DNA of 64,000 bases from an uncultured bacterium (GCA_963766885.1 CAVYBO010000002.1:528606-592605); one strand, 5' to 3'. Counted from the stretch's first letter, positions 31,796-48,635 are shown. Numbers and translations are program-made. Notes: generated by a model not told the origin, from the sequence alone.

Positions 31796-32710
31796 ATGAT
31801 GAGTAAAGTAAAAAAACCAAGCAAAAAAATCATTGCTCTGCTCATAATTTGCTTGGCGATTATTGCAAGTCTGCTCATTATCACCAGAAAAACACTGCCT
31901 ATCGCCGCTCCTGCTCTTGGATACAAAATCGAAGATATACAAACATATAATTCGGAGCACGACAACGATCAAGATTCGCAAGAATTGCAGAATCTATTAG
32001 GAAACGCAAGTTCCACAGATGATTCAGCTGATGCTTCTTCCACCAACACAAGTGATCTTGTGGCCAGAAGTTTATACGCAGGATATCTGCAATTGTCCCA
32101 AAACAATGATACATCTGATCAGTCAAAAATAGACCTGACTCAAAGCATAGTATCCCAAGCTGCGCAGAATTTTGCATATACGCAATTTTCGCCCGGCAAC
32201 ATGAATATTGTAAGCGATCCAAACCAACAATCTATCCAATTTTTTGCTTCTTCTCTGGCTTCTATCCAAGAAGAAATTCTTGCCGGAATGGTGTCAGAAA
32301 GTCAAAAGCCGGGTGCAATAAATTTGTCCAATATTTCAAATATTTACACAAAAGCAGCGCAGGATGTTTATAATCTTCCAACACCTGTTGATCTATCAAG
32401 CACAGCCCTGGATATTGCCAACAATTACAACATCACAGCCGCTTTTTATATGGATCTTTATAACGAAAAAAAGGATCCTGTAACAGTTGAAATCGCAATC
32501 AAATATTTTGAAACTGCTGCCGCAAATCAGACTAGCGACCTTAACGCCATAGCGGATTATTTGAAGCAGAGTGGTATAATTTTTTCACCAGATGAGATAG
32601 GAAATTATTGGAGTAATTTCGGCACAGGATCAATAAACGATATTCCAGCAACAAATAATACATCAGAAAATTCAGACACTTCTTCTTTGGATTCGGAACA
32701 ATCGCAATGA
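31796..32710 (+). CDS. Membrane-anchored hypothetical protein
   Basis: N-terminal TM helix IIALLIICLAIIASLLII. Ser/Asp-rich. Confidence 0.4.
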   Translation: MMSKVKKPSKKIIALLIICLAIIASLLIITRKTLPIAAPALGYKIEDIQTYNSEHDNDQDSQELQNLLGNASSTDDSADASSTNTSDLVARSLYAGYLQLSQNNDTSDQSKIDLTQSIVSQAAQNFAYTQFSPGNMNIVSDPNQQSIQFFASSLASIQEEILAGMVSESQKPGAINLSNISNIYTKAAQDVYNLPTPVDLSSTALDIANNYNITAAFYMDLYNEKKDPVTVEIAIKYFETAAANQTSDLNAIADYLKQSGIIFSPDEIGNYWSNFGTGSINDIPATNNTSENSDTSSLDSEQSQ

Positions 32711-32720
32711 AAATAACACA

Positions 32721-34553
32721 ATGAAAATAAACTGTAGAAAAATTTTTAATTTTTTCTCTCCGATATTAATATTTTCAATGGTTTTTTATCTTCCTCTCAG
32801 TGCTTATGCCCAAGCCACACAAGCCCAGGTTCAACAGTATTCGAGTGCGCTTTCACAATACGGAACATCAGTGCAAGGCGGCACAGGCACAAGCCCAACT
32901 TATGGACAATCTGGGACAGCAGGACTGGCAGGTGCGGCGGGTTCTTGTTCAATCGGCACACTAGGTGCAGCGTTAATTACCAGCACGATAACAAAAGCTA
33001 TTGGCGCTGTGGCCGGTTTGGGACAAACAGCAACTGGTGCCGGAACAAGCGCAGTCACAAGCTCAACTGGCCAAGCTGTTCCAATCCAATACGCCACAGG
33101 GGATGAAATGGTTTTTCAAGCCATAAGCAAAAACCTCAAGGACCAAGGTCAAAGAAATTTTTCCTTAAATGCAAGCGATGGTTCTTTCAACGGAATTGTG
33201 GCTCAAGGAGCTTCGCTTGGATTTAATCTACCGAGCCTCAACGCCATTGGATTTTGCATAGTAAATGAGATTCTTGCCTATATTACCCAGTCAACAATTC
33301 AGTGGATTAACAGCGGTTTTCAAGGCAGTCCTGTTTTTGTGTCAAATACCGGAGAGTTCTTGCAAGGAGTAGAAGACCAAGAACTTGGAAATTTTGTGAA
33401 CGGTATTGCAGAGGGAACCCTCGGAATAAATCTCTGCCAACCTTTTAAGGTGCAGGTGCTTTTGGGCACCCTTGGTGTTGGCGGAAGAGGCCAGCAAAAT
33501 CCATTAAGCTGCACATTAAACGCTATAAAAAATAACTACAATCAATTTGTGGGAGGCAACTGGGGTTCGGGCGGAATGCAAGGTTGGTTTGAGCTTACTC
33601 AAGGAGCAAATAATCCATACGGAGCTACAATGATCGCTCAGCAGCAAGCCCTACTCCAAGTCAACAAACAGCAAAATAATCTTTTGATTAATCTTAATTG
33701 GGCAAAGGGCTATCACGACTTTACATATTGTCAGGATAAAAGCACCCCTAACACCACAACAGGCAAATGCTCCAACGGAGCAGCGCCGGTTACAGGCACT
33801 CCAGGCGATTATATTCAAAACCAAGTCAACGCCAGAGCAGCTGCTCCAGAACAACGTCTGAATATTGCTACAGACTTTGATCAATTAGTTTCAGCGTTAG
33901 TTAATGAGCTGATACAAATCGCTATAAATAAAACACTGGAATCTGCAAATCCTAATACTCCTTACTACACTCCTCCAACTTACAACAACACATCATCAGG
34001 CGGCGGATCTTCTGGTGGTTCGCCAGTAACATATACTCAACCTGTTGTATCTTGTTCTGGTAGTGATGTATATACGACAAACAGTACTGCAAGCAGTACC
34101 TCAACAATAATATGGTCTGCTTCTGCTACAGGCGGAAGCGGCAACTTCGTATATTATTGGAACGGAGACGCTTATGGAAATTCTCAAAATGTTACAAATA
34201 CATACAGCACATCTGGAACAAAAAATGCCACACTAACTGTATATGACGCTACTTCTGGACAGACATCCTTGGCTACTTGTTCTGCTGTTGTATATGGCGG
34301 CAGCACTAGCAGCATTACCGCTTCTTGCTCAGCATACCCATCAGGAAACGCTATAACCTGGATTGCCGACACCACGGGCGGAAGCGGCAACTACACATAC
34401 TCTTGGAGCGGAGACGCTTACGGATCTTATTCAAGCGTTACAAACACATACGCCACTAGTACAAGTGGAACAAAAAGCGGAACAGTGACCGTCTCTGACG
34501 CGTCTTCTTCAAGCACTCCAGCCACAGCTAGCTGCTCTGCAAGCATTAGTTAG
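32721..34553 (+). CDS. Secreted Gly/Ser-rich protein with two C-terminal PKD-like ~85-aa domains
   Basis: Signal peptide. The C-terminal repeats containing TGGSGN(F/Y)(V/T)Y(Y/S)W(N/S)GDAYG and bounding Cys residues resemble the repeat unit of the 61023 gene. Confidence 0.5.
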   Translation: MKINCRKIFNFFSPILIFSMVFYLPLSAYAQATQAQVQQYSSALSQYGTSVQGGTGTSPTYGQSGTAGLAGAAGSCSIGTLGAALITSTITKAIGAVAGLGQTATGAGTSAVTSSTGQAVPIQYATGDEMVFQAISKNLKDQGQRNFSLNASDGSFNGIVAQGASLGFNLPSLNAIGFCIVNEILAYITQSTIQWINSGFQGSPVFVSNTGEFLQGVEDQELGNFVNGIAEGTLGINLCQPFKVQVLLGTLGVGGRGQQNPLSCTLNAIKNNYNQFVGGNWGSGGMQGWFELTQGANNPYGATMIAQQQALLQVNKQQNNLLINLNWAKGYHDFTYCQDKSTPNTTTGKCSNGAAPVTGTPGDYIQNQVNARAAAPEQRLNIATDFDQLVSALVNELIQIAINKTLESANPNTPYYTPPTYNNTSSGGGSSGGSPVTYTQPVVSCSGSDVYTTNSTASSTSTIIWSASATGGSGNFVYYWNGDAYGNSQNVTNTYSTSGTKNATLTVYDATSGQTSLATCSAVVYGGSTSSITASCSAYPSGNAITWIADTTGGSGNYTYSWSGDAYGSYSSVTNTYATSTSGTKSGTVTVSDASSSSTPATASCSASIS

Positions 34554-34639
34554 AAGTGGTCACTGTCAGATTAAAATAAATAAAAATATTCAGGATTTTC
34601 TTTTTGATTTGTTCTATAATATAAACATATTCAACTGAA

Positions 34640-37399
34640 ATGACTTCAAAAAGATTTTTAAAATGGGCGGGATTTATTTCTATATTTTTTGTTTTATGTA
34701 TTTTTAGTACCAGCAGCGCAAGGGCAGATACTCCTGTAATAATTACTACGAAAGGTCTTCCCTCTGGCGTATCAATTCCTTCTACATCACCGTCTTTAAC
34801 ACTTACTGATAGTAGTGGAAACACAGATAGTAATGTGTACAAAGCAAGTAATGGAAACTACTACGAATTAGCGCTACCATCTTACTCAAATGGAGAGACT
34901 GCAACATTTACACAAGTAACACCAAAAACTGATGCGAATGGAAACCCTATAATTACGAGTACTGGACAACCTTTTGGAAGTTCTTCTAACGGATCAGGTG
35001 CCTCCACAGGGGCTAATGGCCAAAACGGCTATACTAGCGGAGGAGTCAACACCGCCGCTGAAACTAATAGCCAATGTCAGGGTACTCTTGCAATTTTATT
35101 TGATGTTGAATGTTGGATATATGCTGTAATGTATTTTATTTTGTGGGCACTGAGTTTGGTCATAACAGTTGTTGGATCTCTGTTTAATTTTGTCTTCAGT
35201 TATACGGTCTTTGATATGTCTGCCAACATCAACAGCTTGGGTGCAATAGACGTGGCTTGGAAAACTATGCGCGACTTAGCTAACATCTGTTTTATATTTA
35301 TTCTTCTTTACCTTGCTATTTCCACAATTCTTGGCTTGGATGAGCACGGGGTCAAGCACACTCTCTCAAAGCTTATTATTATGGCCCTTCTTCTAAACTT
35401 CAGTATGTTCTTTACTAAAATAATAATTGATGCGGCGAACATCATTTCTATAAATTTCTATAATGCAATCAATTATGGCGGAAATGCAAATATGGGAGAT
35501 ATTTTTATGTCTGCTTTCCAACTTCAAACAATATACAACAATTCGGGTATAAACGTCGCTAACACACAATCGGCCAATACCATAAGCAATATTGCGGCAT
35601 TCATTCAAAGCGATCATCCTATAGCGATATTCTTGGGAGGATCAATTTTTGAACTTGTGGCCCTGGCTGTTTTGGTTTCATCAATAATGATGTTCATCAA
35701 GCGTTTTGTAATATTAGTGTTGGTAATCATATTTTCTCCTCTTGCCTTTGCTGGAATGGTGCTTCACCAAACCGAGCACTTTGTGCGCGAATGGTGGAAT
35801 TATCTTCTAAAAGAAGCGTTCTTTGCTGCGATTTATATGATAATGCTTTGGGTCGTAATATCCATAATCGCTAGTTGTGGATTCAAAGCAAGTATCGGAT
35901 TGCTCCCAAGCGGCGCAAGTTGTAAAAACAGCACAGACACCAGTTCTTCTTCTAGTGTAGGCGGACAAGGCTTGGGGTATTCTTTTGAAAATCCAGTAGC
36001 AACTGGGGCTAATGGCTTGGGAGGTTCTGGAGCAGTTTTCTTTGATTTTGCTATTGTAACGGCGCTTCTAATTGCCATTCTTATTGCATCAGAACATATG
36101 GGAGTTGTGGGAGCAGACAAAGCAGTGCATGGAGTAGAGCATTTTATGGGCAATGTCGGCGGCTGGGTTGGGTCAAATACATTAGGAAGGATTGGGAATA
36201 CAGTATTGAACAAAGGTGATTCTGCTACATTTTTGCGAGATGCTGCTGCTGGTAGACTTGGTAATAATCCTGTATCTAAATTCATATATCGTAGAATTGG
36301 AGAGGCTGGAGTGGGTGTTACCTCAAGCATGAGTGCGGGTAAATATGGAGGACATCATAGTTATGAAGATAAGGTTCATCACAGAGAGGAGGCGTTTGAA
36401 GCATCAAGCGATGAACACCACGAGGATTCATTAGTTGACGCAGAGATGCTTATGCGAGGAGCAAGTGATCCCCTAAGAACTATGGGTACAGATTTTAAGA
36501 CTGCCGATCATTTACATCATAAATGGAACGCGGAAAAACACGCTAACGTAATGCTAGCACTCCAAAGTATTGAAGGAGATGCAAATAGACCTGCAGCAGA
36601 AAGAGCAAGAGCAACAGGAGCATTGGACAGATTTTATACGGGGGGTCATGCCGGAACAGGAAGGCTAACACCTGAAAAAGCTAACCAGGTATCTAGAGCA
36701 ATAAGTGGGGGTGTGGAATTTATTAACGATCAATATAGAAACTTGATAAATAATTTTGACCCAAATAATCAAGCAACAGTTGATGCTTTTAGAAACTTCT
36801 TTCGTGCTGAAGGTAGGACTCAAGCGCAAATCTTGCAGGCAATTAAATCGCAAGGACAAGCTGCTGCTACACGATTCATGGGTGCCACAGCCCAGGCGCA
36901 GACGCTGCGAGACACGTTAACAGAAGAAACAAGAAATGTTTTCAACGGAGAAAGGCCTTACGCAGCCATTGCAAGCGATGATCTTATAAGCGACGAAGTT
37001 AAAACAGCTATTGCCACGGGCGGTTACCAAAAAACAATGTTATCAAATCTTTATTCTATCTTTACAGGAGCACATGCTAACACAGCTCGTACCAATCCAG
37101 CCGTAGTAGCTGATTTTCTACATAGGCTTACAGATTACGCGGCGCATGCCCCGGCAGCAAATGTTCAACAGATTACAGCAGCTCTTGGACAAATTACACC
37201 CGGCATGACACCAGCTCAAGAACAAGCAGTGTTACAAGCAGCAATTACAGCATACGGAAATGAAGGAACGACTCATGCAGCAACAGCGTCTTACTATAAT
37301 GGACAAAATGGACAACGAAGCCAGACTAGATCTCCTGTAATAGATCGGGAATACAGACAAAATAGTAATTGGATGAATGATCCAAACTTAAGACCGTAA
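34640..37399 (+). CDS. Large polytopic membrane protein, VirB6/TrbL-like (tentative)
   Basis: Signal peptide, then a cluster of 5-6 TM helices with conserved aromatic residues, then a long hydrophilic C-terminal extension. Sits in a locus with VirB4 and PrgI-like genes. Confidence 0.4.
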   Translation: MTSKRFLKWAGFISIFFVLCIFSTSSARADTPVIITTKGLPSGVSIPSTSPSLTLTDSSGNTDSNVYKASNGNYYELALPSYSNGETATFTQVTPKTDANGNPIITSTGQPFGSSSNGSGASTGANGQNGYTSGGVNTAAETNSQCQGTLAILFDVECWIYAVMYFILWALSLVITVVGSLFNFVFSYTVFDMSANINSLGAIDVAWKTMRDLANICFIFILLYLAISTILGLDEHGVKHTLSKLIIMALLLNFSMFFTKIIIDAANIISINFYNAINYGGNANMGDIFMSAFQLQTIYNNSGINVANTQSANTISNIAAFIQSDHPIAIFLGGSIFELVALAVLVSSIMMFIKRFVILVLVIIFSPLAFAGMVLHQTEHFVREWWNYLLKEAFFAAIYMIMLWVVISIIASCGFKASIGLLPSGASCKNSTDTSSSSSVGGQGLGYSFENPVATGANGLGGSGAVFFDFAIVTALLIAILIASEHMGVVGADKAVHGVEHFMGNVGGWVGSNTLGRIGNTVLNKGDSATFLRDAAAGRLGNNPVSKFIYRRIGEAGVGVTSSMSAGKYGGHHSYEDKVHHREEAFEASSDEHHEDSLVDAEMLMRGASDPLRTMGTDFKTADHLHHKWNAEKHANVMLALQSIEGDANRPAAERARATGALDRFYTGGHAGTGRLTPEKANQVSRAISGGVEFINDQYRNLINNFDPNNQATVDAFRNFFRAEGRTQAQILQAIKSQGQAAATRFMGATAQAQTLRDTLTEETRNVFNGERPYAAIASDDLISDEVKTAIATGGYQKTMLSNLYSIFTGAHANTARTNPAVVADFLHRLTDYAAHAPAANVQQITAALGQITPGMTPAQEQAVLQAAITAYGNEGTTHAATASYYNGQNGQRSQTRSPVIDREYRQNSNWMNDPNLRP

Positions 37400-37400
37400 A

Positions 37401-38102
37401 ATGCAAAAGCTAAAACAAAATCAATACACCGAAATTTTTCAAAAGCTTCCTGCTCCAATCAAGGATGTGGTAGCAGCAAGTACCACTTCGGAAAAAATTT
37501 TTAAGATTGCCCAGACACATCGTCTGCAAGTGGATCAATCTGGAACTTTAAATAATATAGTGCTTGATGTTTTGATGGGTATTACTTCTGTCAAAAATTT
37601 TTTGGACACAGTTAAGCAAGAAATCAATCTGGAACCCCACGAAGCGGTGGCACTGGTAAATGATATTGATGAACAAATATTCAAGCCGGTGCGAGAAGCT
37701 ATGGAAAAGGCTTTTGCCGGCGGAGCGCCTTACAAGCCGCGAACAATAGCCACAGCAGACGAGAATGACGATGAGCATCTGCATCTTACCAAGCGCGATG
37801 TCCTAAAGGAGATTGAAAATCCGGCGGAATCTCAAGTAAGAAAAGTTTTGATTAATAATCCTGATTCTCATAAAGAAGATAATCCAAAACCTGAAAATAT
37901 TCCCAAGGAGCCCGAAGCGACAATAGCAACAACAGAGGCAGTGGAGGAATATCACGAAGAGCTTACTGGGAATAAAATTGAAATAAGAAAATTGCCAGTA
38001 GAAGCATCTGAAGAAGCGCCAAAAGAAGAAATCAAAACTCCAGAACCTCAAAACACTGAACAAAAATACCAAGTTGATCCATACAGAGAGCCGATAGAAT
38101 AA
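37401..38102 (+). CDS. Hypothetical acidic protein
   Basis: ORF immediately following and co-directional with the T4SS-like genes. Confidence 0.35.
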   Translation: MQKLKQNQYTEIFQKLPAPIKDVVAASTTSEKIFKIAQTHRLQVDQSGTLNNIVLDVLMGITSVKNFLDTVKQEINLEPHEAVALVNDIDEQIFKPVREAMEKAFAGGAPYKPRTIATADENDDEHLHLTKRDVLKEIENPAESQVRKVLINNPDSHKEDNPKPENIPKEPEATIATTEAVEEYHEELTGNKIEIRKLPVEASEEAPKEEIKTPEPQNTEQKYQVDPYREPIE

Positions 38103-38135
38103 CTACACATAGGAATTTTCTGCTATAATTTATAT

Positions 38136-38627
38136 ATGCAGTATCAAGTTCCTCAATTCATAGAAATAGAAGACAAGATTTTTGGTCCTCTGACCTTTAA
38201 GCAATTTGCATATGTGGCCGGAGGCGGCGCAATGTGCTTCTTGGCTTGGAGATTTTTGCCTGTTTTCATAAGTATTTTTATCATAGTTCCTGTTGGCGGC
38301 TTTGCCTTAGCATTAGCATTCTATAAAGTGAACAACAGGCCTTTTGTTTTTATGGTTGAGTCGGCTATAAAATATTTTTTCAACAAAAAACTTTATATCT
38401 GGCAAAAAGAGAAGAAAAAACAGGTAGAAAAAACTGCAGCTGTGGCAGCAAATAAAGTTTATATACCCAAACTTTCCGAATCTAAACTCAAAGAGCTGAC
38501 ATGGAGCTTGGATATTAATGATACAATTTATTCAAAGTCCCAAAAATCGCCAATCATTAACGGGGATAGTAAAGAAGTTTCGAGTTTCAAAGGACTAAGC
38601 GAAGATATGAAAAAACAATGGCAATAA
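38136..38627 (+). CDS. PrgI-family (VirB3-like) small membrane protein (tentative)
   Basis: VPQFIEIEDKIFGPLTFKQF followed by two TM helices. Positioned directly upstream of VirB4, as PrgI/VirB3 usually is. Confidence 0.45.
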   Translation: MQYQVPQFIEIEDKIFGPLTFKQFAYVAGGGAMCFLAWRFLPVFISIFIIVPVGGFALALAFYKVNNRPFVFMVESAIKYFFNKKLYIWQKEKKKQVEKTAAVAANKVYIPKLSESKLKELTWSLDINDTIYSKSQKSPIINGDSKEVSSFKGLSEDMKKQWQ

Positions 38628-39259
38628 GTTCTCAAGATTTTGTTCCAATAAAAGAAGTAAGGGAAGGCGTCGTGATTATGAAAGACGGCTCCCTTAGGAA
38701 TATCATTATGACTTCTTCAATAAACTTCGCCCTCAAAAGTGAAGACGAGCAAGAAGCGATTATAATCCAATTCCAAAATTTCTTGAATACTCTGAATTTT
38801 TCAATTCAGATTTTTATGCAATCCCGTCGTTTGGATATTAGACCGTACATTGCCCTTTTGGAAAATGTTCTCAAAGAACAGAGGAACGACTTGCTTAAAA
38901 TCCAAACCAGAGAATATATCGCTTTTATCAAGACGTTCACCGAGCAGGTAAACGTTATGAGCAAGAGTTTTTTTATCGTAGTGTCTTATGAACCAGCCAT
39001 GCTAAAAATGAAAAAAAACCCTGTAAGTAAATTCATTGGGTCTAAAAAAGAAGAGGATAAAGTGCAGAGTAATGACAATTTTGAAGAACAGCGGGAACAG
39101 CTTCTTGAAAGAGTGGAAGTGGTTATTCAAGGGCTGACTAGACTGGGTGTACGGTCTTTGACTCTCGGCACCGAGGAAGTCATTGAGCTTTATTACAAGC
39201 TTTTCAACCCAGGTGAAACAGAGAAGCCTATAAATATAAACCAAGTAGTAGAACATTAA
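38618..39259 (+). CDS. VirB4-family ATPase, N-terminal fragment
   Basis: DFVPIKEVREGVVIMKDGSLRNIIMTSSINFALKSEDEQEAIIIQFQNFLNTL resembles the N-terminus of Gram-positive VirB4 homologues (TrsE/Orf16-type). Stops 2 nt before the next ORF. Confidence 0.55.
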   Translation: MAISSQDFVPIKEVREGVVIMKDGSLRNIIMTSSINFALKSEDEQEAIIIQFQNFLNTLNFSIQIFMQSRRLDIRPYIALLENVLKEQRNDLLKIQTREYIAFIKTFTEQVNVMSKSFFIVVSYEPAMLKMKKNPVSKFIGSKKEEDKVQSNDNFEEQREQLLERVEVVIQGLTRLGVRSLTLGTEEVIELYYKLFNPGETEKPININQVVEH

Positions 39260-39261
39260 TT

Positions 39262-41085
39262 ATGTCAGTATTAGATAAATTATTTAATAGAAAACAAGAT
39301 TCACAATTGCGGCCCGCAACAGCAATATTGCCGGAAGAAATTTACGAATCGGCGGTATTGGAACTCAAAGACGTCATCGCTCCATCAGCCATCAAAGTAT
39401 CTCCTCGAGAACTCAATCTGGGCGACAAAATAGCCAGAACATTTTTTGTTATTTCTTATCCAAGATTTTTGACCGAAAGCTGGTTCGCGCCGATAATCAA
39501 TCTGGATAAAATTTTTGATGTTTCAATATTCATTCATCCGATAGACACAGCTCAAATCCTTAGAACATTTCAAAAAAAAGTGGCAGAAGTCCAAAGCCAG
39601 ATACATATGCGGGAAGCAAAGGGCTTGGTCAGAGACCCTGTGCTAGACACCGCATATCAAGACCTGGAACAACTTCGAGACCAGCTGCAACAAGCCCAAG
39701 AAAAAATATTTGATGTTGGACTTTACTTCAGTATTTATGGCAGCACCGATGAAGAATTGGACAAGATCGAATCAGAAATAAAGTCCATCCTTGAATCAAA
39801 GCTTGTTTACGTAAAGCCTGCGCTATTTCAGCAAGAACAGGGCTTCAGAAGCGTTATGCCATTTTGTAATGATGAGCTCAACGTCAATTCCAAATTAAAT
39901 TCTTCTCCGCTTTCAAGCGTTTTCCCGTTTATTTCTTTTGACCTGACAAGCGACAAAGGTATTCTCTACGGCGTCAATCGTCATAATTCCAGCCTTATTC
40001 TTTTTGACAGATTCTCTCTTGAAAATTACAACTCAGTAACGTTCGCCAAAGCGGGAAGCGGCAAAAGCTACTGCACCAAACTTGAAATTCTGCGTAGTCT
40101 GATGTTTGACATAGATGTTATTGTTATTGACCCGGAAAAAGAATACGAATATTTATCCGAAGCCACAGGCGGAAGATATTTTAATATTTCCTTGAATTCC
40201 GAGCACCATATCAATCCTTTTGACCTGCCGATTCCAAGAGAAGACGAATCTCCTGCAGATGTTTTGAGAGGAAATATTATTAACCTTGTGGGACTCTTTA
40301 GAATAATGCTTGGCGGCATCACTCCTGAAGAAGACTCGATCATAGACAAAGCAATTACTGAAACATACGCTCTCAAAGACATTACCCCAGAATCAGATTT
40401 TGGATCAATTGAGCCGCCGCTTCTTTCTGACTTTGAATTGGTGCTCGCAGGAATGGAAGGCGGTGATTCGCTTGTACAACGCCTTGAAAAATACACCAAA
40501 GGCACATGGGCGGGATTTATCAACAAGCCGTCAAACGTGGACATCAACAAAAAATTCGTGGTGTTTTCACTGCGAGATATGGAAGACGAGCTCAAACCTG
40601 TGGCAATGTATATCGTCACTCACTATATATGGAACGCTATCAGGCAGAAATTAAAGAAAAGAATTCTGGTTATTGATGAGGCCTGGTGGATGATGAAGTC
40701 CGAAGACACAGCGTCGTTCCTGCTTGGGCTTGCTAAACGATGCAGAAAATATTTTCTTGGGCTTGCCACAATCACCCAAGACGTGGACGACTTTCTCAAA
40801 TCTCCATACGGCTTGCCGATTATCACAAACTCATCCATTCAGATTTTGCTCAAGCAATCCCCGTCTTCAATAGACAACGTGCAGCATACTTTTAACTTAA
40901 CAGATGAAGAAAAATATCTTTTACTTGAATCAGATGTCGGTGAAGGAATATTTTTTGCTGGCCTCAAGCACGTGGCAATCAAAATCATTGCTTCATACAC
41001 CGAAGACCAAATCATCACTTCTGACCCATCTCAAGTTTTGGCAATTCAACAGGCCAAGAAAGATGCTGAGGAGGATAAGTTATAA
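39262..41085 (+). CDS. VirB4/TrsE/PrgJ-family type IV secretion ATPase, main part
   Basis: Walker A FAKAGSGKSYCTKLEI, Walker B VLVIDEAWWMM and CagE/TrbE/VirB domain features. Confidence 0.8.
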   Translation: MSVLDKLFNRKQDSQLRPATAILPEEIYESAVLELKDVIAPSAIKVSPRELNLGDKIARTFFVISYPRFLTESWFAPIINLDKIFDVSIFIHPIDTAQILRTFQKKVAEVQSQIHMREAKGLVRDPVLDTAYQDLEQLRDQLQQAQEKIFDVGLYFSIYGSTDEELDKIESEIKSILESKLVYVKPALFQQEQGFRSVMPFCNDELNVNSKLNSSPLSSVFPFISFDLTSDKGILYGVNRHNSSLILFDRFSLENYNSVTFAKAGSGKSYCTKLEILRSLMFDIDVIVIDPEKEYEYLSEATGGRYFNISLNSEHHINPFDLPIPREDESPADVLRGNIINLVGLFRIMLGGITPEEDSIIDKAITETYALKDITPESDFGSIEPPLLSDFELVLAGMEGGDSLVQRLEKYTKGTWAGFINKPSNVDINKKFVVFSLRDMEDELKPVAMYIVTHYIWNAIRQKLKKRILVIDEAWWMMKSEDTASFLLGLAKRCRKYFLGLATITQDVDDFLKSPYGLPIITNSSIQILLKQSPSSIDNVQHTFNLTDEEKYLLLESDVGEGIFFAGLKHVAIKIIASYTEDQIITSDPSQVLAIQQAKKDAEEDKL

Positions 41086-41086
41086 A

Positions 41087-41659
41087 ATGGATAAAAAAGA
41101 AAGAATTTCAAAAGGCACCAGAAAACTAATGATTGGCTTTACGTTAACCCTGGATGCAATAAAGTTTTTGCTTGCAATTCTAGTAATAGGCGAAATTGCC
41201 AATAGGCTTATAAATATTTTTGCGGAAATAATACTTTGGATATGGTTTAAATCCAAGGGAGTAAGTTTTTATGGGTCAAGAAATGCAGTCAGGGCTGGCA
41301 CTACTTTTTTTATCGGAACAACACTTGGAGAAGTACCTGTGGTTGGGGACTGCTTATTAACTGTTGAAACAGCTTTGATACTTTATATGATAAAATTGGA
41401 AGATAAGACAGGACTTTCAACACAAAAATTAATACAGGATCCGGTCCAGATGAATAAAATTGTCCGATACGGCCAAAAAATTAATAATAAAATACAAAAA
41501 ACAGGCAACCCTCAACAGCAAAAAATTATAGCCCAAAGGGAACATTTAGCAAAACGAAACGCGGATAATCAGCCTAAAAACATACTCACTCCAGCAAATT
41601 TAAGTAAAAATAATGTCGAAAATAATTCAACACAAGAAAATCTTCAAGCCGCTGCTTAG
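41087..41659 (+). CDS. Hypothetical membrane protein
   Basis: Start taken at MDKKER immediately after the VirB4 stop. 2-3 TM helices. Confidence 0.4.
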   Translation: MDKKERISKGTRKLMIGFTLTLDAIKFLLAILVIGEIANRLINIFAEIILWIWFKSKGVSFYGSRNAVRAGTTFFIGTTLGEVPVVGDCLLTVETALILYMIKLEDKTGLSTQKLIQDPVQMNKIVRYGQKINNKIQKTGNPQQQKIIAQREHLAKRNADNQPKNILTPANLSKNNVENNSTQENLQAAA

Positions 41660-42692
41660 CGCTTTGGGTCTTATATGCATATTTGGATTTGCATTTGAAG
41701 TAAAAGCTCAATTGGACACTTCTCCTTCTATTCCTTCCGAGATACCAGAAATCCAAGAACAAGTTTACGTTGACCAAGCTCCGGGAAATCCAAATCCGGG
41801 AGACACGGTGAAAATAAGTTTGGAAGCCTACGGCACAGACTTGAACTCCGCAAATGTTACTTGGAAAATTAACGGCACCGTTGCCAAAGAAGGCAGGGGG
41901 ATTGCAGAGCTTGATGTTGTTGCCGGAGATTCTGGCACCAAAAAAACCGTAGATGTATATATCGACCCTCCAAATGGCCCAGAGATACAAAAAACAGTAG
42001 TCATAGAGCCGGAGCAACTGGATATTGTATGGGAAGCCAAAGCATATACACCTCCGTTTTATAAAGGCAAAGCCTTGTATGCTCCGCAAGAAAAAGTTGT
42101 CATTGCTGCTTTTCCAAACTTTGAAGCAGATGGTTCAGTTGGAGTTGACCCAAGCCACATCTCATACAGTTGGACAAACAATCTTGACGCTGTGCCGCAA
42201 TATTCCGGTTACGGATCAAACTATATGCTTTTCCAAGGGCCGATTGTCCAAGATGATCAATATATATATGTAACAGCAACAGCCGATTCTGGAGCTAGCG
42301 CTGAAGCCAATATAGACATGCTTCCAACGCTCCCAAATGTTTTAGTTTACGAAGACAATCCGCTTTATGGAGTATTATTCAACAAAGCACTGCCGGCAAA
42401 CTTTAGTCTTCAAGACAGCCAGACCACATTGGCGGCTTATCCATATTACTTTGGATTTACATCACAGACTGATCCAAATGCAGAATATCAGTGGACAATT
42501 AATGGACAAAATATTTCTGCTTCGCAAAGTCAGGCTACAATGGTATTTACCAACTCTTCTGGACAATCCGGAAGCTCTGAGGTAGGTATTGATGTACAGA
42601 ATGCAAACAATTTTTTGGAAGAAGCAACCCAGAATCTAAATATAAATTTTAATGCAACGAGCAATCAACAGAATACAGGTGTATCATTTTAA
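41613..42692 (+). CDS. Secreted or membrane-anchored hypothetical protein
   Basis: Signal/anchor LLSALGLICIFGFAFEVKAQ. No family recognised. Confidence 0.4.
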   Translation: MSKIIQHKKIFKPLLSALGLICIFGFAFEVKAQLDTSPSIPSEIPEIQEQVYVDQAPGNPNPGDTVKISLEAYGTDLNSANVTWKINGTVAKEGRGIAELDVVAGDSGTKKTVDVYIDPPNGPEIQKTVVIEPEQLDIVWEAKAYTPPFYKGKALYAPQEKVVIAAFPNFEADGSVGVDPSHISYSWTNNLDAVPQYSGYGSNYMLFQGPIVQDDQYIYVTATADSGASAEANIDMLPTLPNVLVYEDNPLYGVLFNKALPANFSLQDSQTTLAAYPYYFGFTSQTDPNAEYQWTINGQNISASQSQATMVFTNSSGQSGSSEVGIDVQNANNFLEEATQNLNINFNATSNQQNTGVSF

Positions 42693-42696
42693 TTAA

Positions 42697-43911
42697 ATGC
42701 AAAATATTAAAAACCAAAAAAATAGACTCTTCAAAATAATAATATTTTTTATTGTTTTAACTTCTTCTGCAGGTTTGGTAAAAGCCCAACAAACAGCACA
42801 ACCGTACACTCAACTTGCTCCTATTACTTTGCCGTCTGCTTTGCCAGGTAGCAGCAACCAAATTACAAGCAGCAACTTAGGACAATATTTTTCTCAGATG
42901 TATCAATTAGGGGTAGGAGTGGCTACGGCATTAGCAGTACTAATGATAATTCTTGGAGGAGTTGAGTATGTGACCACAGACGCAATTGGTGGCAAAGAAG
43001 AGGGAAAAACAAAAGTTCAGAATGCAATATTAGGACTTTTACTAGCTTTAGGCTCGTGGATAATTCTCAATACAATTAATCCCGCTTTCTTGAATACCAA
43101 CTTGCAGATTTCAAATGTCACTTTGAATTGTACTAATCCTGCTGGCTGCGGGCCTGGATTTGGAAATTCTAATGGGTTAAGTACAGGAAATGGTGGGGAA
43201 GGAGCAGGAACAAACAACAGCACAGTGGGTGCTTTAACACCTAGTCAACTTGCAATTAATAGTATGACACCAGCTCAACAACAAGCTTATGAGCAGGCTC
43301 TTTATGATCAAGCCATGGGTAATCCTCTAACACCAGATGATCTAGCCGCAATGTCAGAATACAACACTGCACTTACCGCTGATAGTTCCAGTTCCAATGC
43401 CACTGGTGGAGTCCCAAATAATGGAGGAAACATTGCGCAAAATTCTTTAGCAGGATCAACTTTTCCAGCAGGTAGTGGTGTTACAAATGCGCAGGTGTTA
43501 AATTTAATAAATCAATCAGGACTTACAGGACTAAGTCCATCCGATGCTTCTAATTATTTTCCAAATGGACAAATCACAGCTCAGGATTATGAGAGTCTTC
43601 TTGCAAGTGTGGCAGACAGTGAATCTGGATTTAACCCACAAGATAATACTAATGGCAAAACTGTTGATTATATTGACCCGAATACTGGTCAGCCGGTGTA
43701 CTCGGAAGGTCTTTTTTCACTTAGTACAACAGATCCAGCAGTAACAGCTTTGGCAAACCAATATGGAATTACCCCTCAACAAGTTATAAGCAATCCCCTA
43801 TATAATACTCAAGCTGCAATAAATATTTTAAAAACTCAAATACAAAAAACCGGATCTATAGCTGGTAATGCTGGCATACATTATTGGGGACCGCTTTATA
43901 AGGGAGAGTAG
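42697..43911 (+). CDS. VirB2/TrbC-like membrane domain fused to SLT-type lytic transglycosylase (VirB1-like)
   Basis: N-terminal signal plus two hydrophobic segments (YQLGVGVATALAVLMIILGGVEYV...AILGLLLALGSWIILN). C-terminal ESGFNPQDNTNG...GLFSLS corresponds to the SLT E-S-x-F-N-P ... GLMQ motifs. Confidence 0.5.
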   Translation: MQNIKNQKNRLFKIIIFFIVLTSSAGLVKAQQTAQPYTQLAPITLPSALPGSSNQITSSNLGQYFSQMYQLGVGVATALAVLMIILGGVEYVTTDAIGGKEEGKTKVQNAILGLLLALGSWIILNTINPAFLNTNLQISNVTLNCTNPAGCGPGFGNSNGLSTGNGGEGAGTNNSTVGALTPSQLAINSMTPAQQQAYEQALYDQAMGNPLTPDDLAAMSEYNTALTADSSSSNATGGVPNNGGNIAQNSLAGSTFPAGSGVTNAQVLNLINQSGLTGLSPSDASNYFPNGQITAQDYESLLASVADSESGFNPQDNTNGKTVDYIDPNTGQPVYSEGLFSLSTTDPAVTALANQYGITPQQVISNPLYNTQAAINILKTQIQKTGSIAGNAGIHYWGPLYKGE

Positions 43912-43951
43912 AGATTATAATAATCCAATTAAATTTGTATAAAATATAAAA

Positions 43952-45394
43952 ATGTCCAGAAAACAAATATTCATAATATTCTCACTAATCCTGCTTATTT
44001 TGATTTTTGTTTTTATTTATATTTTTGCTTTGCTCCAAAAAAACAATGGCCAATACGATCTAAGCGACGGATTTTCAAATTCTGTCAGAGGTTTTCTTCC
44101 TTTTGGCAATCTGGCTCCGTCAAATGTCGTAAGTAATAATCAAAATTTAAACCCAAATAGCAGTCCATCAAATATTTCTTCCACAACTCTACCAGAAATT
44201 ATGCCCCGTCTTCGAGAAATTTCTTCTGTGCCTGTGGCCGGATCTGAAATCGTAGCAAGGGAAAGAGATGTTGTTGTAAACAAAGTTAAAACAAAAGTTT
44301 ATGATCAATACATCAGATTTGTGGACAGGGCAACGGGCCATGTTTTTGAAACCAAAAGTGATAGCCCTGCTATCACAGAAATTTCCGATACCACAATACC
44401 AAAAGTTTATGAAGTGGATTTTTCTTCAAATCCGAATGTGGCGATTTTCAGATCGTTGGATGAATCCACAGATACTATTCTTTCTGAAGTGGCCACTCTA
44501 GCAAGTTCAACTTTACCAATACAAGCCACTTCCACAGCTTTTGAAATAAATTCTACCTCAACAACAACCAGCACTTCAACAGTTGAAGTTTATACTGGCA
44601 CTCCTTACAAAACTGAAATCTCATATCTTCCTAACAATATTGCAAATCTTGCCGTGGGTCCTAGCTTGCAAAAAATGATTTATTCACTGCCAAATGCTAG
44701 TGGAGGAAACATACTAGTTTCAAATATAGACGGCTCCAAACCTTTGGTGGCATTTACTTCTGCTCTCAGCGGCTGGCTGCTTAGCTGGCCAAACTCCAAA
44801 TATACGGTTTTGACTACCAAGCCATCCGGCTTTGCCAACGGCATCTCGCTTCTGTTAAATCTTTCGAGCGGCTCTTTAAGCAAAATTGCTTCTGGCAATG
44901 GCCTGACAACTCTTGTTTCTCCAGATTTAAGCACAGCTTTAGTCGGGAAAGGTGGATTAACAATGGATTTGAGTGCGGAGAACTTAAAAGACAGCAGTTC
45001 TTTAGGACTCTCTCTTCAAACTCTTCCTGAAAAATGTGTCTGGGCAAATACTGAAAACTCAATTGCATATTGTGCTATTCCTAACATAGTGCCTAAAGGC
45101 ACTTACCCAGATGATTGGTATCAAGGATTAATTTCATTTACAGATAATATTTGGGAAATAAATACCTCAACAGGAGTAAGTAATATAGTTGCCGCACTTT
45201 CGGAAGATTACAATCAAAACATCGACGCTATCAACCTGCAAATTTCTTCAGATGATTCTTATCTTACTTTTATGAACAAAGATGATCTGACTCTCTGGGG
45301 ATACTGGCTTCGCCTTGCAACTTCAACTCAAGCAACATCCACCACAGCTTCAACCAACAAATCAAATAGTGCCTCCACTTCTGCCACCTTCTAA
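43952..45394 (+). CDS. Membrane-anchored Ser/Thr-rich hypothetical protein
   Basis: N-terminal TM helix IFIIFSLILLILIFVFIYIFALL. Last gene of the co-directional cluster. Confidence 0.4.
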   Translation: MSRKQIFIIFSLILLILIFVFIYIFALLQKNNGQYDLSDGFSNSVRGFLPFGNLAPSNVVSNNQNLNPNSSPSNISSTTLPEIMPRLREISSVPVAGSEIVARERDVVVNKVKTKVYDQYIRFVDRATGHVFETKSDSPAITEISDTTIPKVYEVDFSSNPNVAIFRSLDESTDTILSEVATLASSTLPIQATSTAFEINSTSTTTSTSTVEVYTGTPYKTEISYLPNNIANLAVGPSLQKMIYSLPNASGGNILVSNIDGSKPLVAFTSALSGWLLSWPNSKYTVLTTKPSGFANGISLLLNLSSGSLSKIASGNGLTTLVSPDLSTALVGKGGLTMDLSAENLKDSSSLGLSLQTLPEKCVWANTENSIAYCAIPNIVPKGTYPDDWYQGLISFTDNIWEINTSTGVSNIVAALSEDYNQNIDAINLQISSDDSYLTFMNKDDLTLWGYWLRLATSTQATSTTASTNKSNSASTSATF

Positions 45395-45873
45395 ATATTT
45401 TCAGAAATTTTATCCAGTTCGTTTTGTTTTTCAACAAACTTAACAATAATCCTTCTGAATTTTCCTTCACCGACTGATTCGGTTTTTATATAAGGCATTG
45501 ATTCAAGCGCTGTATGCACAATCATCCTGTCGTAGGAGGACATCGGTTCCATCTCAATATCTTTTTTGAATTCTCTGGCACGCTCAGCAATGATTTTGGC
45601 TTTGGTTTTTAAAGTTTCTTCCTGCTTTTGTTTTATATTATTAAAATCCACTGAAACTTTTTTTTCTTCTCCAAGAATTTTTTCAGCCATTCTTTTAAGC
45701 AGATAGGACAGGGCATCGAACCTGTCTTTGTCTCTGCTGATAAAATCCTTGCTTTCATCGCACTTTATAGAAATAAGATAGCCAAATTCGCTTTGTTCTA
45801 TCTGAATATCACACTCCGAAATGCCGAGTTTATCTAAAAAAGATAAAGTTTGATTTTTTAGGTCTTCTATCAT
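45391..45873 (-). CDS. Jag/KhpB-like RNA-binding protein (KH + R3H)
   Basis: Position after yidC, domain pattern, and C-terminal R3H-like region. Confidence 0.65.
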   Translation of the reverse strand: MIEDLKNQTLSFLDKLGISECDIQIEQSEFGYLISIKCDESKDFISRDKDRFDALSYLLKRMAEKILGEEKKVSVDFNNIKQKQEETLKTKAKIIAERAREFKKDIEMEPMSSYDRMIVHTALESMPYIKTESVGEGKFRRIIVKFVEKQNELDKISENI

Positions 45874-45915
45874 AGACCTTTATCTTATATATTCAATGCC
45901 CAAAGTCAACCGAGA

Positions 45916-46635
45916 TTAGACTGTAGGATTTTTTCTTTTTCTTCTTACGATAAATTCTTGAATAGACATAAATGTGCTTCTGGAAGCCCAATAAAGGGGC
46001 AGGGCGCTTGGAAGAGTGGTGCCTATCATCAGGATAATGACAGGCAAAAAGTACTTCATCTGCATATTCATTGAATGAGCAAAATCCTCAGCCATGCTGC
46101 CGTTTTCGCTTTTCTTTGTTTTTGGAGACATAATCTGGGCTTGGATAAATTGGGCAACCCCCGCAATTATTGCCATAAAAATGTTTTTCTTGCTTATGTT
46201 AAGAATGCCCAAAAAATTCATGTTTACCATCTTAGGGATCATCACAAAAGGATAAAGCGTTTTGACATTTATCGAGGGTAAGCCTCCTTTATAAAAAACA
46301 TAATACAAGCCCAAAAGAATAGGAATTTGGAGGAGAGCCACAACAATTCCTGAAAAGGGATTGATCTTGTATTTTTTATAAAGTTCTAGGGTCGCTTTTG
46401 TTTGCTGCTCTTTGTCTTTTATCTGCTCTTTGATTTTTTTTAGTTCCGGTTCAATCTCTTTCATTTTGAGCTGGGTTTTGATTGCTTGTTTGGAAATTGA
46501 AAACAAAAGCAGGCTAACCACCAAGGTTGTTCCGATTACTGCAAGCCCAACATCATGATTGGGCATTATATCAATCAGCCAAACTAAAAGATTGTAGAGT
46601 GGAAGGTAGAAAATATTATTGAATAACCATTGCAT
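45916..46635 (-). CDS. yidC: Membrane protein insertase YidC/Oxa1 family
   Basis: Multi-TM 60-kDa inner-membrane protein family pattern. Sits in the rpmH-rnpA-yidC operon. Confidence 0.8.
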   Translation of the reverse strand: MQWLFNNIFYLPLYNLLVWLIDIMPNHDVGLAVIGTTLVVSLLLFSISKQAIKTQLKMKEIEPELKKIKEQIKDKEQQTKATLELYKKYKINPFSGIVVALLQIPILLGLYYVFYKGGLPSINVKTLYPFVMIPKMVNMNFLGILNISKKNIFMAIIAGVAQFIQAQIMSPKTKKSENGSMAEDFAHSMNMQMKYFLPVIILMIGTTLPSALPLYWASRSTFMSIQEFIVRRKRKNPTV

Positions 46636-46649
46636 AAAAATATTTTAAC

Positions 46650-47000
46650 TCATTGCGCTTTTTTAAGATAGTTGCTTTTAAGATACTCTACAAACTTTTC
46701 CGCTTGTTCTTTTAAATTTTCAAAATTAATATCAAGAGAATTTTTCTGAATAAAGACTACAGCTTCTACCGGTGGAATATTTAGAGCAAGCGGGGTAAAA
46801 GCTTCTCTTATTCTTCTTTTGGCCAAATTTCTTTGGACCGCCTTTTTAAATTCTTTTTTTGAAGCAACAAAGGCAATCTTTGGCTTTCCTACTGAGTTTT
46901 TTCTAAATCTGACATAAAAGCATTCCGAAGAATATTTTTGACTGCTTTTTAAGACCAAAGGGATTTCTTTGGCAGAGAGGGAGTGCGCTCTTTTCATCAA
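46650..47000 (-). CDS. rnpA: Ribonuclease P protein component
   Basis: RNLAKRRIRE motif. Between rpmH and yidC. Confidence 0.75.
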   Translation of the reverse strand: MMKRAHSLSAKEIPLVLKSSQKYSSECFYVRFRKNSVGKPKIAFVASKKEFKKAVQRNLAKRRIREAFTPLALNIPPVEAVVFIQKNSLDINFENLKEQAEKFVEYLKSNYLKKAQ

Positions 47001-47017
47001 AATAAATTTTAATCCGA

Positions 47018-47152
47018 TTAGACAGAAAGCTTCTTTCGGCCTTTTCTCATTCTGCTCTTGATTACTCTTTTACCTCCGTGAGTTTTCATCCTCACGAGGA
47101 ATCCGTGAGTTCTGGCTCGTTTTCTTTTTTTTGGCTGGTATGTTACTGACAT
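47018..47152 (-). CDS. rpmH: 50S ribosomal protein L34
   Basis: [44 protein letters not shown]. Start at the internal Met of the listed ORF. Confidence 0.85.
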
Positions 47153-47207
47153 GATTTTAGTTGACAAACTATAATATAAAATGTTCTTTAATGCAAATTT
47201 GTTTTTG

Positions 47208-47216
47208 TTATCCACA
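47208..47216. promoter_or_regulatory. Consensus DnaA box TTATCCACA between rpmH and dnaA
   Basis: Perfect 9-mer seen directly in the rpmH-dnaA intergenic region. Confidence 0.5.
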
Positions 47217-47282
47217 AATTATCAACATACTTATGAACTTATTTCAAGTTCCTAAAGAACGCATGGATACTATAATTCTTTC

Positions 47283-48635
47283 ATGCAAGACCTTGAAGAA
47301 AAAGAATCAACTTGGAAAAAAGTTTTATCTGGTGTAGAACTTGAACTCTCCAAGCCTAATTTTACTACATGGTTTAAAGGCACATCACTGGTCAAAATAG
47401 ACGATGGAATGGTTTTTGTCGGTGTACCGAACGCTTTTGTAAGAGATTGGCTTTTAAATAAGTATCACAAAATCATTTTGAAGTCTTTAAGAGACATTTC
47501 TTATGAGGTCAGGGGTGTAGAATACATTATAGTCAAAGAAAATCCCATTCAAAAAGCGGAAGTTAGGCCTGTTTTTAAAATTTCTACGGCAAGTGAATTG
47601 CCGCTTGCAGATTTGTATATCAATAAGGACTACAACCTAAATCCTAGATACACTTTTGACAATTTCGTCATTGGTCCGTTTAATGAGCTTGCATATGCGG
47701 CTGCACAGGCGGTGATAAAAAAACTGGCGTCTTATAATCCTTTGTTTTTCTATGGAAGTACCGGGCGAGGAAAAACCCATCTTATCCAAGCCATCGGCAA
47801 CCACATCAAAAAAGATTTTCCTTCGACAAAAATCTTTTATATCAGCTCGGATCGTTTTGTTCAGGAATACACAACCGCAGTTCAAGACGGAAAAATCAAT
47901 ACTTTCAAGGAAAAATATCGCAAATATGATGTTTTTATAGTGGATGACATACAGTTTCTTTCCAAAAAAGAAAAAACTCAGGAAGAATTATTCCATCTGT
48001 TCAACTTTTTTCACGAGAACAACAAGCAAATCGTCTTTTCTTCAGACCAGCATCCAAATTACATACCAGATCTTGAAGAAAGAATAAAATCTCGCCTGGT
48101 TTCAGGAATGATTATAGATATTGGTGCTCCGGACTTTGAATCCCGAGCTGCTATTGTCCGAAACAAAGCCAAGTTAAGAAATTTTAACCTGCCTGACGAG
48201 ATTATTGACTTTCTTGCCGGCTCAATAGAAGGGAATATAAGGGAATTGGAGGGTATATTAAACACCATTATCTGCCAAACAGAACTCAAAAACAGAGACT
48301 TGGATCTTACTGAGGTAAAAAATCTAATCAAAGACTCCGCCAAGCCGCAAAAAACCGTTTCGGTGAAAGATGTTTTGAAAGTAATATCAAAATATTACGA
48401 TGTGGAAGAAAGCTCTCTTATAGACAAGACTAGAAAGAAAGAAGTGGTAAAACCTCGCCAAGTGGCAATGTATATTCTGCGCGAAGACTACAATATTTCC
48501 TTTCCTTCAATCGGAGCGAAGCTAGGGGGCAGAGACCATACCACAGTTATTCACTCTTGTGAGAAGGTAAAAACCGATATAAAAAATAATCCTGGTCTTG
48601 CTCGCGAGGTTACAGAAATCCGGACAATGCTGTGA
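47283..48635 (+). CDS. dnaA: Chromosomal replication initiator protein DnaA
   Basis: AAA+ Walker A GSTGRGKTHL and C-terminal DNA-binding domain ending ...IRTML. Confidence 0.9.
   Translation: MQDLEEKESTWKKVLSGVELELSKPNFTTWFKGTSLVKIDDGMVFVGVPNAFVRDWLLNKYHKIILKSLRDISYEVRGVEYIIVKENPIQKAEVRPVFKISTASELPLADLYINKDYNLNPRYTFDNFVIGPFNELAYAAAQAVIKKLASYNPLFFYGSTGRGKTHLIQAIGNHIKKDFPSTKIFYISSDRFVQEYTTAVQDGKINTFKEKYRKYDVFIVDDIQFLSKKEKTQEELFHLFNFFHENNKQIVFSSDQHPNYIPDLEERIKSRLVSGMIIDIGAPDFESRAAIVRNKAKLRNFNLPDEIIDFLAGSIEGNIRELEGILNTIICQTELKNRDLDLTEVKNLIKDSAKPQKTVSVKDVLKVISKYYDVEESSLIDKTRKKEVVKPRQVAMYILREDYNISFPSIGAKLGGRDHTTVIHSCEKVKTDIKNNPGLAREVTEIRTML

Follow-up and report, generated by a model that had tools for sequence, protein, structure and literature searches.

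The 64,000-nucleotide stretch of DNA analysed here (the window; GCA_963766885.1, CAVYBO010000002.1:528606-592605, from an uncultured bacterium) contains, on the plus strand at 31796-45394, a cluster of 11 co-directional, closely spaced open reading frames (ORFs) for a type IV secretion system (T4SS). It is highly probable that this locus belongs to the Patescibacteria clade of T4SSs, which derives from monoderm MPF_FATA conjugation machinery, and that it works as a non-conjugative conduit at the contact with a host. The organism is a tiny-genome, Paceibacteria-like bacterium from the candidate phyla radiation (CPR). An earlier interpretation of positions 32721-45394 (the sequence-only reading) had proposed a non-conjugative, host-interacting role for a small-genome episymbiont, which is the same interpretation that has already been published for the clade. 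The type of locus, the absence of a relaxase, and the position beside dnaA were all published between 2023 and 2025; this is a known system and not a discovery.

Few machines have been shown to be indispensable to the epibiotic way of life in this large uncultured radiation, and the Patescibacteria T4SS is among them. The present locus is a clean and complete example of the Paceibacteria type and adds nothing categorical to the known picture. It does show extreme conservation of the ATPase (above that of DnaA), a fast turnover of every outward-facing part, and an abundant secreted family that has no Pfam model. These comparisons come from a scan of one genome per GTDB species, which yielded 573 VirB4 relatives; the best 80 of the 573 (loci L001-L080) were used, and these are Paceibacteria-type metagenome-assembled genomes (MAGs) from Taylor-, Zambryski-, Nomura-, and Campbellbacteria and 'Parcubacteria'. 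(Many of the related MAGs, among them L001 and L003-L006, are titled 'uncultured Candidatus Saccharibacteria' despite a Paceibacteria-type VirB4, 80-87% identical, and the same synteny; these titles look like pipeline mislabels.)

The T4SS core

The motor of the system is a VirB4 ATPase. It exceeds the cutoff of the NCBIfam model conju_CD1110 ('VirB4-like conjugal transfer ATPase, CD1110 family'; 364.7 bits, cutoff 325, model positions 183-733 of 752), matches Pfam P-loop_TraG with an expectation value (E) of 1.8e-26 as well as AAA_10 and DUF87, and matches the Thermoanaerobacter VirB4 C-terminal domain in the PDB (4ag5, 2e-38). Its Walker A (AGSGKS) and Walker B (VIDEAW) motifs are intact in the translation. 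The VirB4 call of the sequence-only reading is thus borne out, as is its description of the system as Gram-positive in type, since CD1110/MPF_FATA is the best model and, among plasmid VirB4s, those of Firmicutes and Actinobacteria (Gram-positive) replicons are the nearest. The identity to these plasmid proteins is 28-35%, with 35% the maximum to any plasmid VirB4, which fits an ancient acquisition or shared ancestry and not a recent mobile element. Hundreds of Paceibacteria/Parcubacteria VirB4s share 79-91% identity with the protein, and this figure, set beside the maximum of 35% for plasmid VirB4s, serves as a proxy for a tree-based placement in the Patescibacteria clade.

Directly upstream of virB4 lies a gene whose product is homologous to the VirB4 N-terminal domain (NCBIfam VirB4_plasma, 2.6e-9; CD1110 positions 2-127, 9.8e-7; TrsD NF041427, 9.7e-6). 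This homology had been noticed before and stands; the accompanying idea that the gene is an N-terminal fragment of VirB4 does not. The two genes meet at 39257 TAA-tt-ATG 39262, with a change of frame, and the upstream one is an ORF of its own (~213 amino acids (aa)) in 77 of the 80 related loci, where its spacing to virB4 varies. A separate ORF in so many loci, together with the TrsD match, indicates that the product is a TrsD-like protein and not part of a broken VirB4. A frameshift or pseudogene is ruled out, because on either side of the junction lies a gene that in those 77 relatives is an ORF of its own, at a varying distance from the other; an alternative genetic code is also ruled out, given long contiguous ORFs under table 11 and a TAA stop at the junction.

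Two further membrane subunits, PrgI/VirB3 and VirB6, are both encoded near virB4. The PrgI/VirB3-like protein, correctly recognised from the sequence, scores above the gathering cutoff of PF12666 (E 2.6e-9, 38 bits, cutoff 27), has two transmembrane segments by hydropathy, and is found in 76 of the 80 loci at 52% identity. For the 919-aa protein, a Pfam scan of the sequence itself gave no match, and NCBIfam returned weak matches to conjugal membrane proteins of Mycoplasma integrative and conjugative elements (ICEs). A TrbL/VirB6 Pfam match is present in 5 of 40 orthologues, many database homologues carry PF04610 or PF19590, and the fold matches TrwI/VirB6 (Foldseek probability 0.99) and DotA. 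Taken together, the fold matches, the TrbL signal in orthologues, the database homologues, and the weak NCBIfam matches support a VirB6 assignment, and the earlier call of a VirB6/TrbL-like protein with a long C-terminal extension would be right. It is predicted to start with a signal peptide and a disordered N-terminal region, which are followed by at least seven hydrophobic segments (~150-505) and a 400-aa C-terminal extension of helical repeats. R388 TrwI/VirB6 and Legionella DotA match this protein in fold, yet they are only 9-12% identical to it in sequence, and the signal peptide, disordered region, and extension go beyond them, in the manner of the 'extended VirB6' type. It is likewise far larger than the VirB6 of MPF_FATA Firmicutes systems (~300 aa).

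The remaining core component is a VirB2-type pilin, in which a signal peptide and two transmembrane helices (residues 65-127) are followed by a low-complexity linker and a probable SLT domain (298-386). The protein scores E 5.1e-5 against T4SS_pilin (PF18895; 23.7 bits, cutoff 26.6), and the same family is matched by 37 of 38 pilin orthologues, at best with 4.7e-10. A family hidden Markov model finds one pilin ORF in the whole window, and a single pilin gene is the rule among relatives (66 of 71 loci). The tail scores E 6.2e-4 against Pfam SLT (PF01464; 19.8 bits, below the cutoff of 21.3), matches an SLT-domain protein in the PDB (6ta9, E 0.005), and contains an E-S motif within ADSESGF. (Matches of the tail to TAL effectors are an artefact of sub-threshold repeat matches being summed.) The proposed fusion of a VirB2-like domain to a lytic transglycosylase is therefore probably right: the orthologues bear out its pilin side, and its SLT side has a sub-threshold match in a tail common to just 3 of the 80 relatives. 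Elsewhere the tails include He_PIG or Peptidase_M15 domains, and among 47 pilin tails there are 36 unrelated groups. Going by VirB2 topology, the tail would face outward, and in this locus it is probably a lytic transglycosylase that would supply the wall-opening function of VirB1.

Gene order, conservation and surface proteins

The cluster lies between ksgA (29895-30701) and jag (Table 1). Its neighbouring genes overlap by up to 47 nt or lie as much as 86 nt apart, and the plus strand shows no terminator-like site within it; with 11 co-directional ORFs so tightly spaced, a single operon is the simplest reading. The GC content of the cluster (0.38-0.42) equals that of its flanks. All ten co-directional ORFs that had been read at 32721-45394 are present. 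An 11th, for a 304-aa protein, ends 10 nt before the gene for the 610-aa protein and is probably part of the cluster, as the first gene of the operon. At the other end, the locus had been thought to stop ~500 bp from jag; this was not the case, for the last gene and jag overlap at their stop codons (45391-45394), so that the cluster abuts jag. The proximity to jag-yidC-rnpA-rpmH/dnaA is confirmed by the gene order, with dnaA starting 1.9 kb downstream of the cluster, and from this order and the DnaA boxes the flank is probably the origin region. (DnaA-box-like 9-mers (TTATCCACA, at most one mismatch) number 34 across the window against 15.5 expected, a count that no shuffle reached; this enrichment extends over the whole window, beyond the dnaA region.)

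Table 1. Coordinates of the T4SS cluster and of the adjoining replication genes
Feature	Position	Strand	Basis or distinguishing features
Bitopic membrane protein, 304 aa	31796-32710	+	N-terminal hydrophobic anchor, then acidic S/D/N-rich region
Secreted protein, 610 aa	32721-34553	+	Signal peptide, helical core, two PKD/Ig-like domains
Extended VirB6-like polytopic membrane protein, 919 aa	34640-37399	+	Orthologue Pfam matches, fold
Soluble acidic protein, 233 aa	37401-38102	+	Invariant C-terminal DPYRE motif
PrgI/VirB3-like two-helix membrane protein	38136-38627	+	PF12666
TrsD-like protein, free-standing homologue of VirB4 N-terminal domain	38618-39259	+	NCBIfam
VirB4 ATPase, MPF_FATA / CD1110 type	39262-41085	+	Pfam, NCBIfam, PDB match
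Small membrane protein, 190 aa	41087-41659	+	Two hydrophobic segments
Secreted beta-rich protein, 359 aa	41613-42692	+	Repeated W-x-(I/V)-N-G motif
VirB2-type pilin with probable SLT tail	42697-43911	+	Pfam in orthologues
Membrane-anchored protein, 480 aa	43952-45394	+	TolB-like beta-propeller, conserved Cys pair
jag	45391-45873	-	Pfam
yidC	45916-46635	-	Pfam
rnpA	46650-47000	-	Pfam
rpmH	47018-47152	-	Read from translation
DnaA boxes (one perfect, one with 1 mismatch)	47208-47227		rpmH-dnaA spacer
dnaA	47283-48635	+	Pfam
Probable origin flank	45391-48635		jag to dnaA

The order uvrD-ksgA-(304)-610-VirB6-(233)-PrgI-TrsD-VirB4-(small TM)-359-pilin-480-(jag)-yidC-dnaA-dnaN is kept in all 41 loci for which full 10 kb flanks are present. 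Median identities to the window, taken over the 28 loci in which every gene is detectable, are 81% for VirB4 (range across relatives 79-84%), 59% for TrsD, 58% for DnaA, 54% for UvrD, 52% for PrgI, 42% for DnaN, 38% for the pilin domain, and 28-30% for the other envelope proteins. VirB4 thus stands well apart from DnaA, UvrD, KsgA, YidC, and DnaN, which in the same 28 loci lie at 41-58%, and its excess over DnaA, UvrD, and DnaN argues for very strong purifying selection on the ATPase. The hydrophilic C-terminal parts evolve fast: the SLT tail is present in 3 loci, the VirB6 extension in 1-2 (58 VirB6 tails form 23 groups), and the PKD repeats in 2.

Five of the 11 products are either secreted or anchored, and their domains are PKD/Ig-like, beta-propeller, or of unknown type. 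One of them is the 610-aa protein, which consists of a signal peptide, a G/A/S/T-rich linker, a Cys-containing helical core (~165-410), and C-terminal beta-sandwiches at residues 442-524 and 533-609. In its AlphaFold2 model the tail has a predicted local distance difference test (pLDDT) score of ~90, while the core has low confidence (pLDDT 45-70), so that the PKD-like tail alone is interpretable. This confidently modelled tandem of beta-sandwiches matches PKD/Ig adhesion folds in Foldseek (E 4e-5), in agreement with the PKD-like repeats that the sequence-only reading had seen in one signal-peptide protein. The core is conserved in 57 of the 80 loci and the PKD tail in 2 only. By profile search the family counts 5,641 representatives of clusters formed at 50% identity, of which 3,084 score E<=1e-30; in 42 members the core is matched by no Pfam model, and it has no match in NCBIfam or the PDB either. 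(In relatives, the tails of the family are Big_2, Big_7, TIG, PKD, or PG_binding_1 domains.)

The 304-aa protein has one N-terminal hydrophobic segment, occurs at the same position in 18 relatives at ~24% identity, and has no match among Pfam, NCBIfam, PHROG, or PDB profiles. The 359-aa protein, present in 76 of the 80 loci, has an N-terminal hydrophobic segment and three repeats of its W-x-(I/V)-N-G motif, seen in the alignment, and is probably made of three Ig-like domains; it gives faint Pfam matches to PKD_3/Ig_3, and its profile faintly matches Hoc and a decoration protein. A TcpC/VirB8-like identity had been suggested for it, a suggestion that the profile does not sustain, showing faint Ig-like signals alone. 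The 480-aa protein, found in 62 of the 80 loci, has a strong N-terminal transmembrane segment, and its profile matches a TolB propeller in the PDB (E 8e-4). The 233-aa product has no hydrophobic segment and is conserved at the same position in 29 loci; no match was found to a Pfam, NCBIfam, or PHROG family or in the PDB. Profiles of these four proteins and of the 610-aa protein gave no match to VirB8, TcpC, TraM, or PrgL in the PDB at E<=1. The small membrane protein, detected in 14 loci and without a match in Pfam, PHROG, or NCBIfam, is read as ORF 40904-41659 in its longest form and most likely begins at Met-62, that is at 41087, where an ATG lies one base past the virB4 stop codon.

Published systems and the function of the locus

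According to Quinonero-Coronel et al. 2025 (Microb Genom, PMC12102498), VirB4 is found in 2,417 of 3,035 Patescibacteria genomes, nearly all of it in one clade nested within MPF_FATA. The genes reported there to be associated with virB4 are those for TrsD, PrgI/VirB3, VirB6, and PF18895 pilins, with VirB1 in Paceibacteria; dnaA, dnaN, rnpA, ksgA, and rpmH are enriched beside virB4 in Paceibacteria, and a repurposed, possibly importing machine is proposed. The locus described here is alike in its MPF_FATA-type VirB4, separate TrsD, PrgI/VirB3, VirB6, PF18895 pilin, and probable VirB1-type domain, in having no relaxase or type IV coupling protein (T4CP) nearby, and in its chromosomal position beside ksgA, rnpA, rpmH, dnaA, and dnaN; from the main account of that study, no essential difference emerges. 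This main account does not describe a pilin and an SLT domain in one polypeptide, C-terminal tails that are hypervariable in both the pilin and VirB6, a conserved trio of unannotated surface proteins, or a VirB4 conserved above DnaA. Measured against it, the variable pilin and VirB6 tails, the pilin-hydrolase fusion, the large unannotated 610-aa family, and the degree of VirB4 conservation are possibly unreported. Once a Paceibacteria-host co-culture is genetically tractable, targets worth choosing would include the tails of the pilin, the extension of VirB6, and the 610-aa family.

Functional data within the clade, as the published accounts have it, come only from Southlakia epibionticum ML1 (Wang et al. 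2023, Cell, PMC10633639), in which transposon sequencing indicated that epibiotic growth requires T4SS genes, among them those for TrsD, PrgI, VirB6, and the pilins, and does not require comEC; the present locus is known from its sequence. SEML1_0006-0019 is described as a T4SS resembling the Gram-positive ones; it includes pilin genes, no relaxase or coupling protein can be recognised in the cluster, and it is located where the chromosome starts. Southlakia is a member of another class, Saccharimonadia, and has an array of six divergent pilins, with separate peptidase and lysozyme genes downstream of virB4 (PMC12102498), whereas there is one pilin here, fused to the probable hydrolase. A 2025 review (PMC12857230) calls the Patescibacteria systems 'newcomers' of the T4SS superfamily, and a 2026 preprint (bioRxiv 10.64898/2026.06.21.733656) reports tubular structures at a parasite-host interface together with the acquisition of host RNA.

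Among the MPF_FATA systems of Firmicutes, the C. difficile CTn2 CD1110 type is alike in that CD1110 is the best model for VirB4. The prgH-I-J-K order of pCF10 presumably parallels the VirB6-VirB3-VirB4-...-hydrolase order found here. The split into TrsD and VirB4 is that of pGO1 (TrsD/TrsE; PMC12102498). Unlike the conjugative MPF_FATA systems, the locus has no relaxase or T4CP in the window and no mobile-element context, and its VirB4 is at most 35% identical to theirs; it also has a VirB2-type pilin, which the Gram-positive systems are described as lacking (PMC12102498, PMC12857230).

The absence of conjugation genes was examined by Pfam in the 30 window ORFs of at least 170 aa outside the cluster. 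No relaxase, VirD4/TcpA, or VirB11 was found among them, in agreement, over these 64 kb, with what the sequence-only reading had stated. The ORFs are housekeeping in nature (among them trigger factor, RNase Y, CCA-adding enzyme, PNPase, ComM-like, PcrA/UvrD, PBP1, TyrRS/TrpRS, RuvABC, Xer-like recombinase). The window's only T2SSE-family ATPase (59146-60870, minus strand) was rejected as a VirB11 because it is of the PilB type (TIGR02538, 7e-143). A tyrosine recombinase (16724-17485, minus strand; Phage_integrase, 1.1e-38), probably Xer-like, lies 14 kb from the cluster, and the scan of window ORFs found no integrase or recombinase adjoining it. With a fixed position in 41 of 41 relatives, a GC content like that of the flanks, and no neighbouring recombinase, the locus gives a negative test for a mobile-element context.

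From these components a mechanism can be proposed. Homology points to a membrane core made up of the extended VirB6, as the subunit of the channel, PrgI/VirB3, and a VirB4 motor in two pieces (TrsD and the ATPase). A single VirB2-type pilin would bear an outward C-terminal tail, the tail being here a probable lytic transglycosylase in the VirB1 wall-opening role, and the five signal-peptide or anchored proteins may, judging from their sequence features, form the wall-spanning and host-contacting part. Where symbiont and host meet, the operon would build a pilus or conduit driven by ATP, through which macromolecules, and not conjugative DNA, would move. As to direction, the balance tips slightly toward the uptake of material from the host, for example nucleic acids, and away from the export of effector proteins: neither a receptor for substrates nor an effector is encoded close by, there are VirB4-driven import systems that have no relaxase (ComB and Ced), nucleotide synthesis is missing from these organisms, and comEC is dispensable where the T4SS is not. 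A more elaborate scheme is unlikely: the pilin and VirB6 would be conserved membrane modules with interchangeable tails, the pilus would display a lineage-specific wall-breaching or host-binding tip, and this tip and the 610-aa family would set the host range of a nucleic-acid-importing machine.

The opposite direction is a serious rival, since protein-exporting T4SSs without a T4CP exist (PMC12857230, PMC12102498). The machine would then inject or release hydrolases or toxins into or onto a host bacterium, as Ptl and Brucella VirB do without a coupling protein, and Wang et al. (PMC10633639) offer this as an option. The probable wall-degrading domain borne by the pilin and the resemblance of the hypervariable outward tails to host-range determinants are in keeping with export; however, no candidate effector, chaperone, or substrate receptor was found in or beside the cluster, and the variable domains are fused to structural subunits instead of being free substrates. 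Export is possible without being the probable answer. That the ATPase assembles only an attachment organelle, a pilus or surface adhesin complex that would keep the cell fixed to its host and translocate nothing, is distinctly unlikely. VirB4 does drive pilus biogenesis in established T4SS biology (PMC12102498) and 5 of the 11 products are surface proteins with adhesin-like folds, but type IV pili already provide host adhesion in the phylum (PMC10633639), a PilB-type ATPase is encoded in the window, and the VirB6 channel subunit is kept and conserved.

That the locus is a functioning apparatus for conjugation, be it an ICE or a system for chromosomal transfer, with its relaxase and coupling protein encoded at other sites of the genome, is very improbable. 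The core is homologous to Gram-positive conjugation machinery, the window is about a tenth of its contig, and T4CP genes are often far from virB4, there being 5,713 VirD4-like proteins reported in Patescibacteria (PMC12102498). Against this, relaxases are reported in just 103 of 3,035 Patescibacteria genomes and are rarely linked to virB4 (PMC12102498), the position and GC content of the cluster are those given above, the nearest recombinase is 14 kb off, and VirB4 is conserved far beyond what is expected for a mobile-element gene. A decaying remnant, in which a frameshifted VirB4 and orphan membrane genes are left from an old mobile element, has a negligible probability. The seeming split of VirB4 with its frame change (39259/39262) and the several genes without a family match might suggest decay, but the TrsD and VirB4 two-gene arrangement is shared by 77 of the 80 relatives and known from pGO1-type systems, the Walker motifs are intact, and all genes are intact and syntenic; the conserved separate ORFs, the synteny, and the 81% identity of VirB4 refute the idea.

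Several points weigh against a non-conjugative conduit of the Patescibacteria type. No VirB8-like subunit was recognised in the cluster. The pilin and SLT scores of the protein itself fall below the Pfam gathering scores, and a pilin with a 280-aa tail may be doubtful as a polymerising subunit. The search for conjugation genes covered 64 kb of a ~596 kb contig (596,164 bp), about a tenth, and T4CP homologues are usually elsewhere in the phylum. The relatives were picked by VirB4 similarity, which somewhat inflates the VirB4 identity, although the gap to the other proteins is large regardless. Finally, GC skew shows no clear switch in the window, and the origin call comes from gene order and DnaA boxes.

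Other features of the window

The PilB-type ATPase mentioned above, which serves type IV pilus assembly, is encoded at a distance of 14 kb from the T4SS. Besides the T4SS, type IV pili are reported as an envelope machine that epibiosis requires (PMC10633639). A LysM-M23 peptidoglycan peptidase (26578-27552, minus strand) is encoded away from the cluster. Within the 30 kb upstream of the T4SS are genes for RNase Y (4458-5987), an enzyme of the CCA-adding/poly(A) polymerase family (13357-14853), and PNPase (20525-22627), and in the 2026 preprint (bioRxiv 10.64898/2026.06.21.733656) PNPase and VirB4 are connected with the consumption of host RNA by members of the phylum.

A GC-rich island at 8500-9900 has a GC content of 0.51-0.575, compared with 0.34-0.41 around it. 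It holds a 477-aa ORF (8512-9945, minus strand) of ordinary composition, with no match in Pfam, NCBIfam, PHROG, or Rfam, and the island may be foreign DNA. At the other end of the window, a large plus-strand gene (61002-64000, continuing beyond the window end) starts with a signal peptide and contains ten perfect 54-bp repeats (DSGSTYDSGNYGSTYDSG) and at least 7.3 perfect 261-bp repeats, which encode PKD-like units with a Y-x-Y-S-W-S motif as in the 610-aa protein of the cluster. The 100% identity of these repeats indicates either a very recent expansion or an assembly collapse. A 673-aa ORF on the minus strand is the antisense shadow of this gene.

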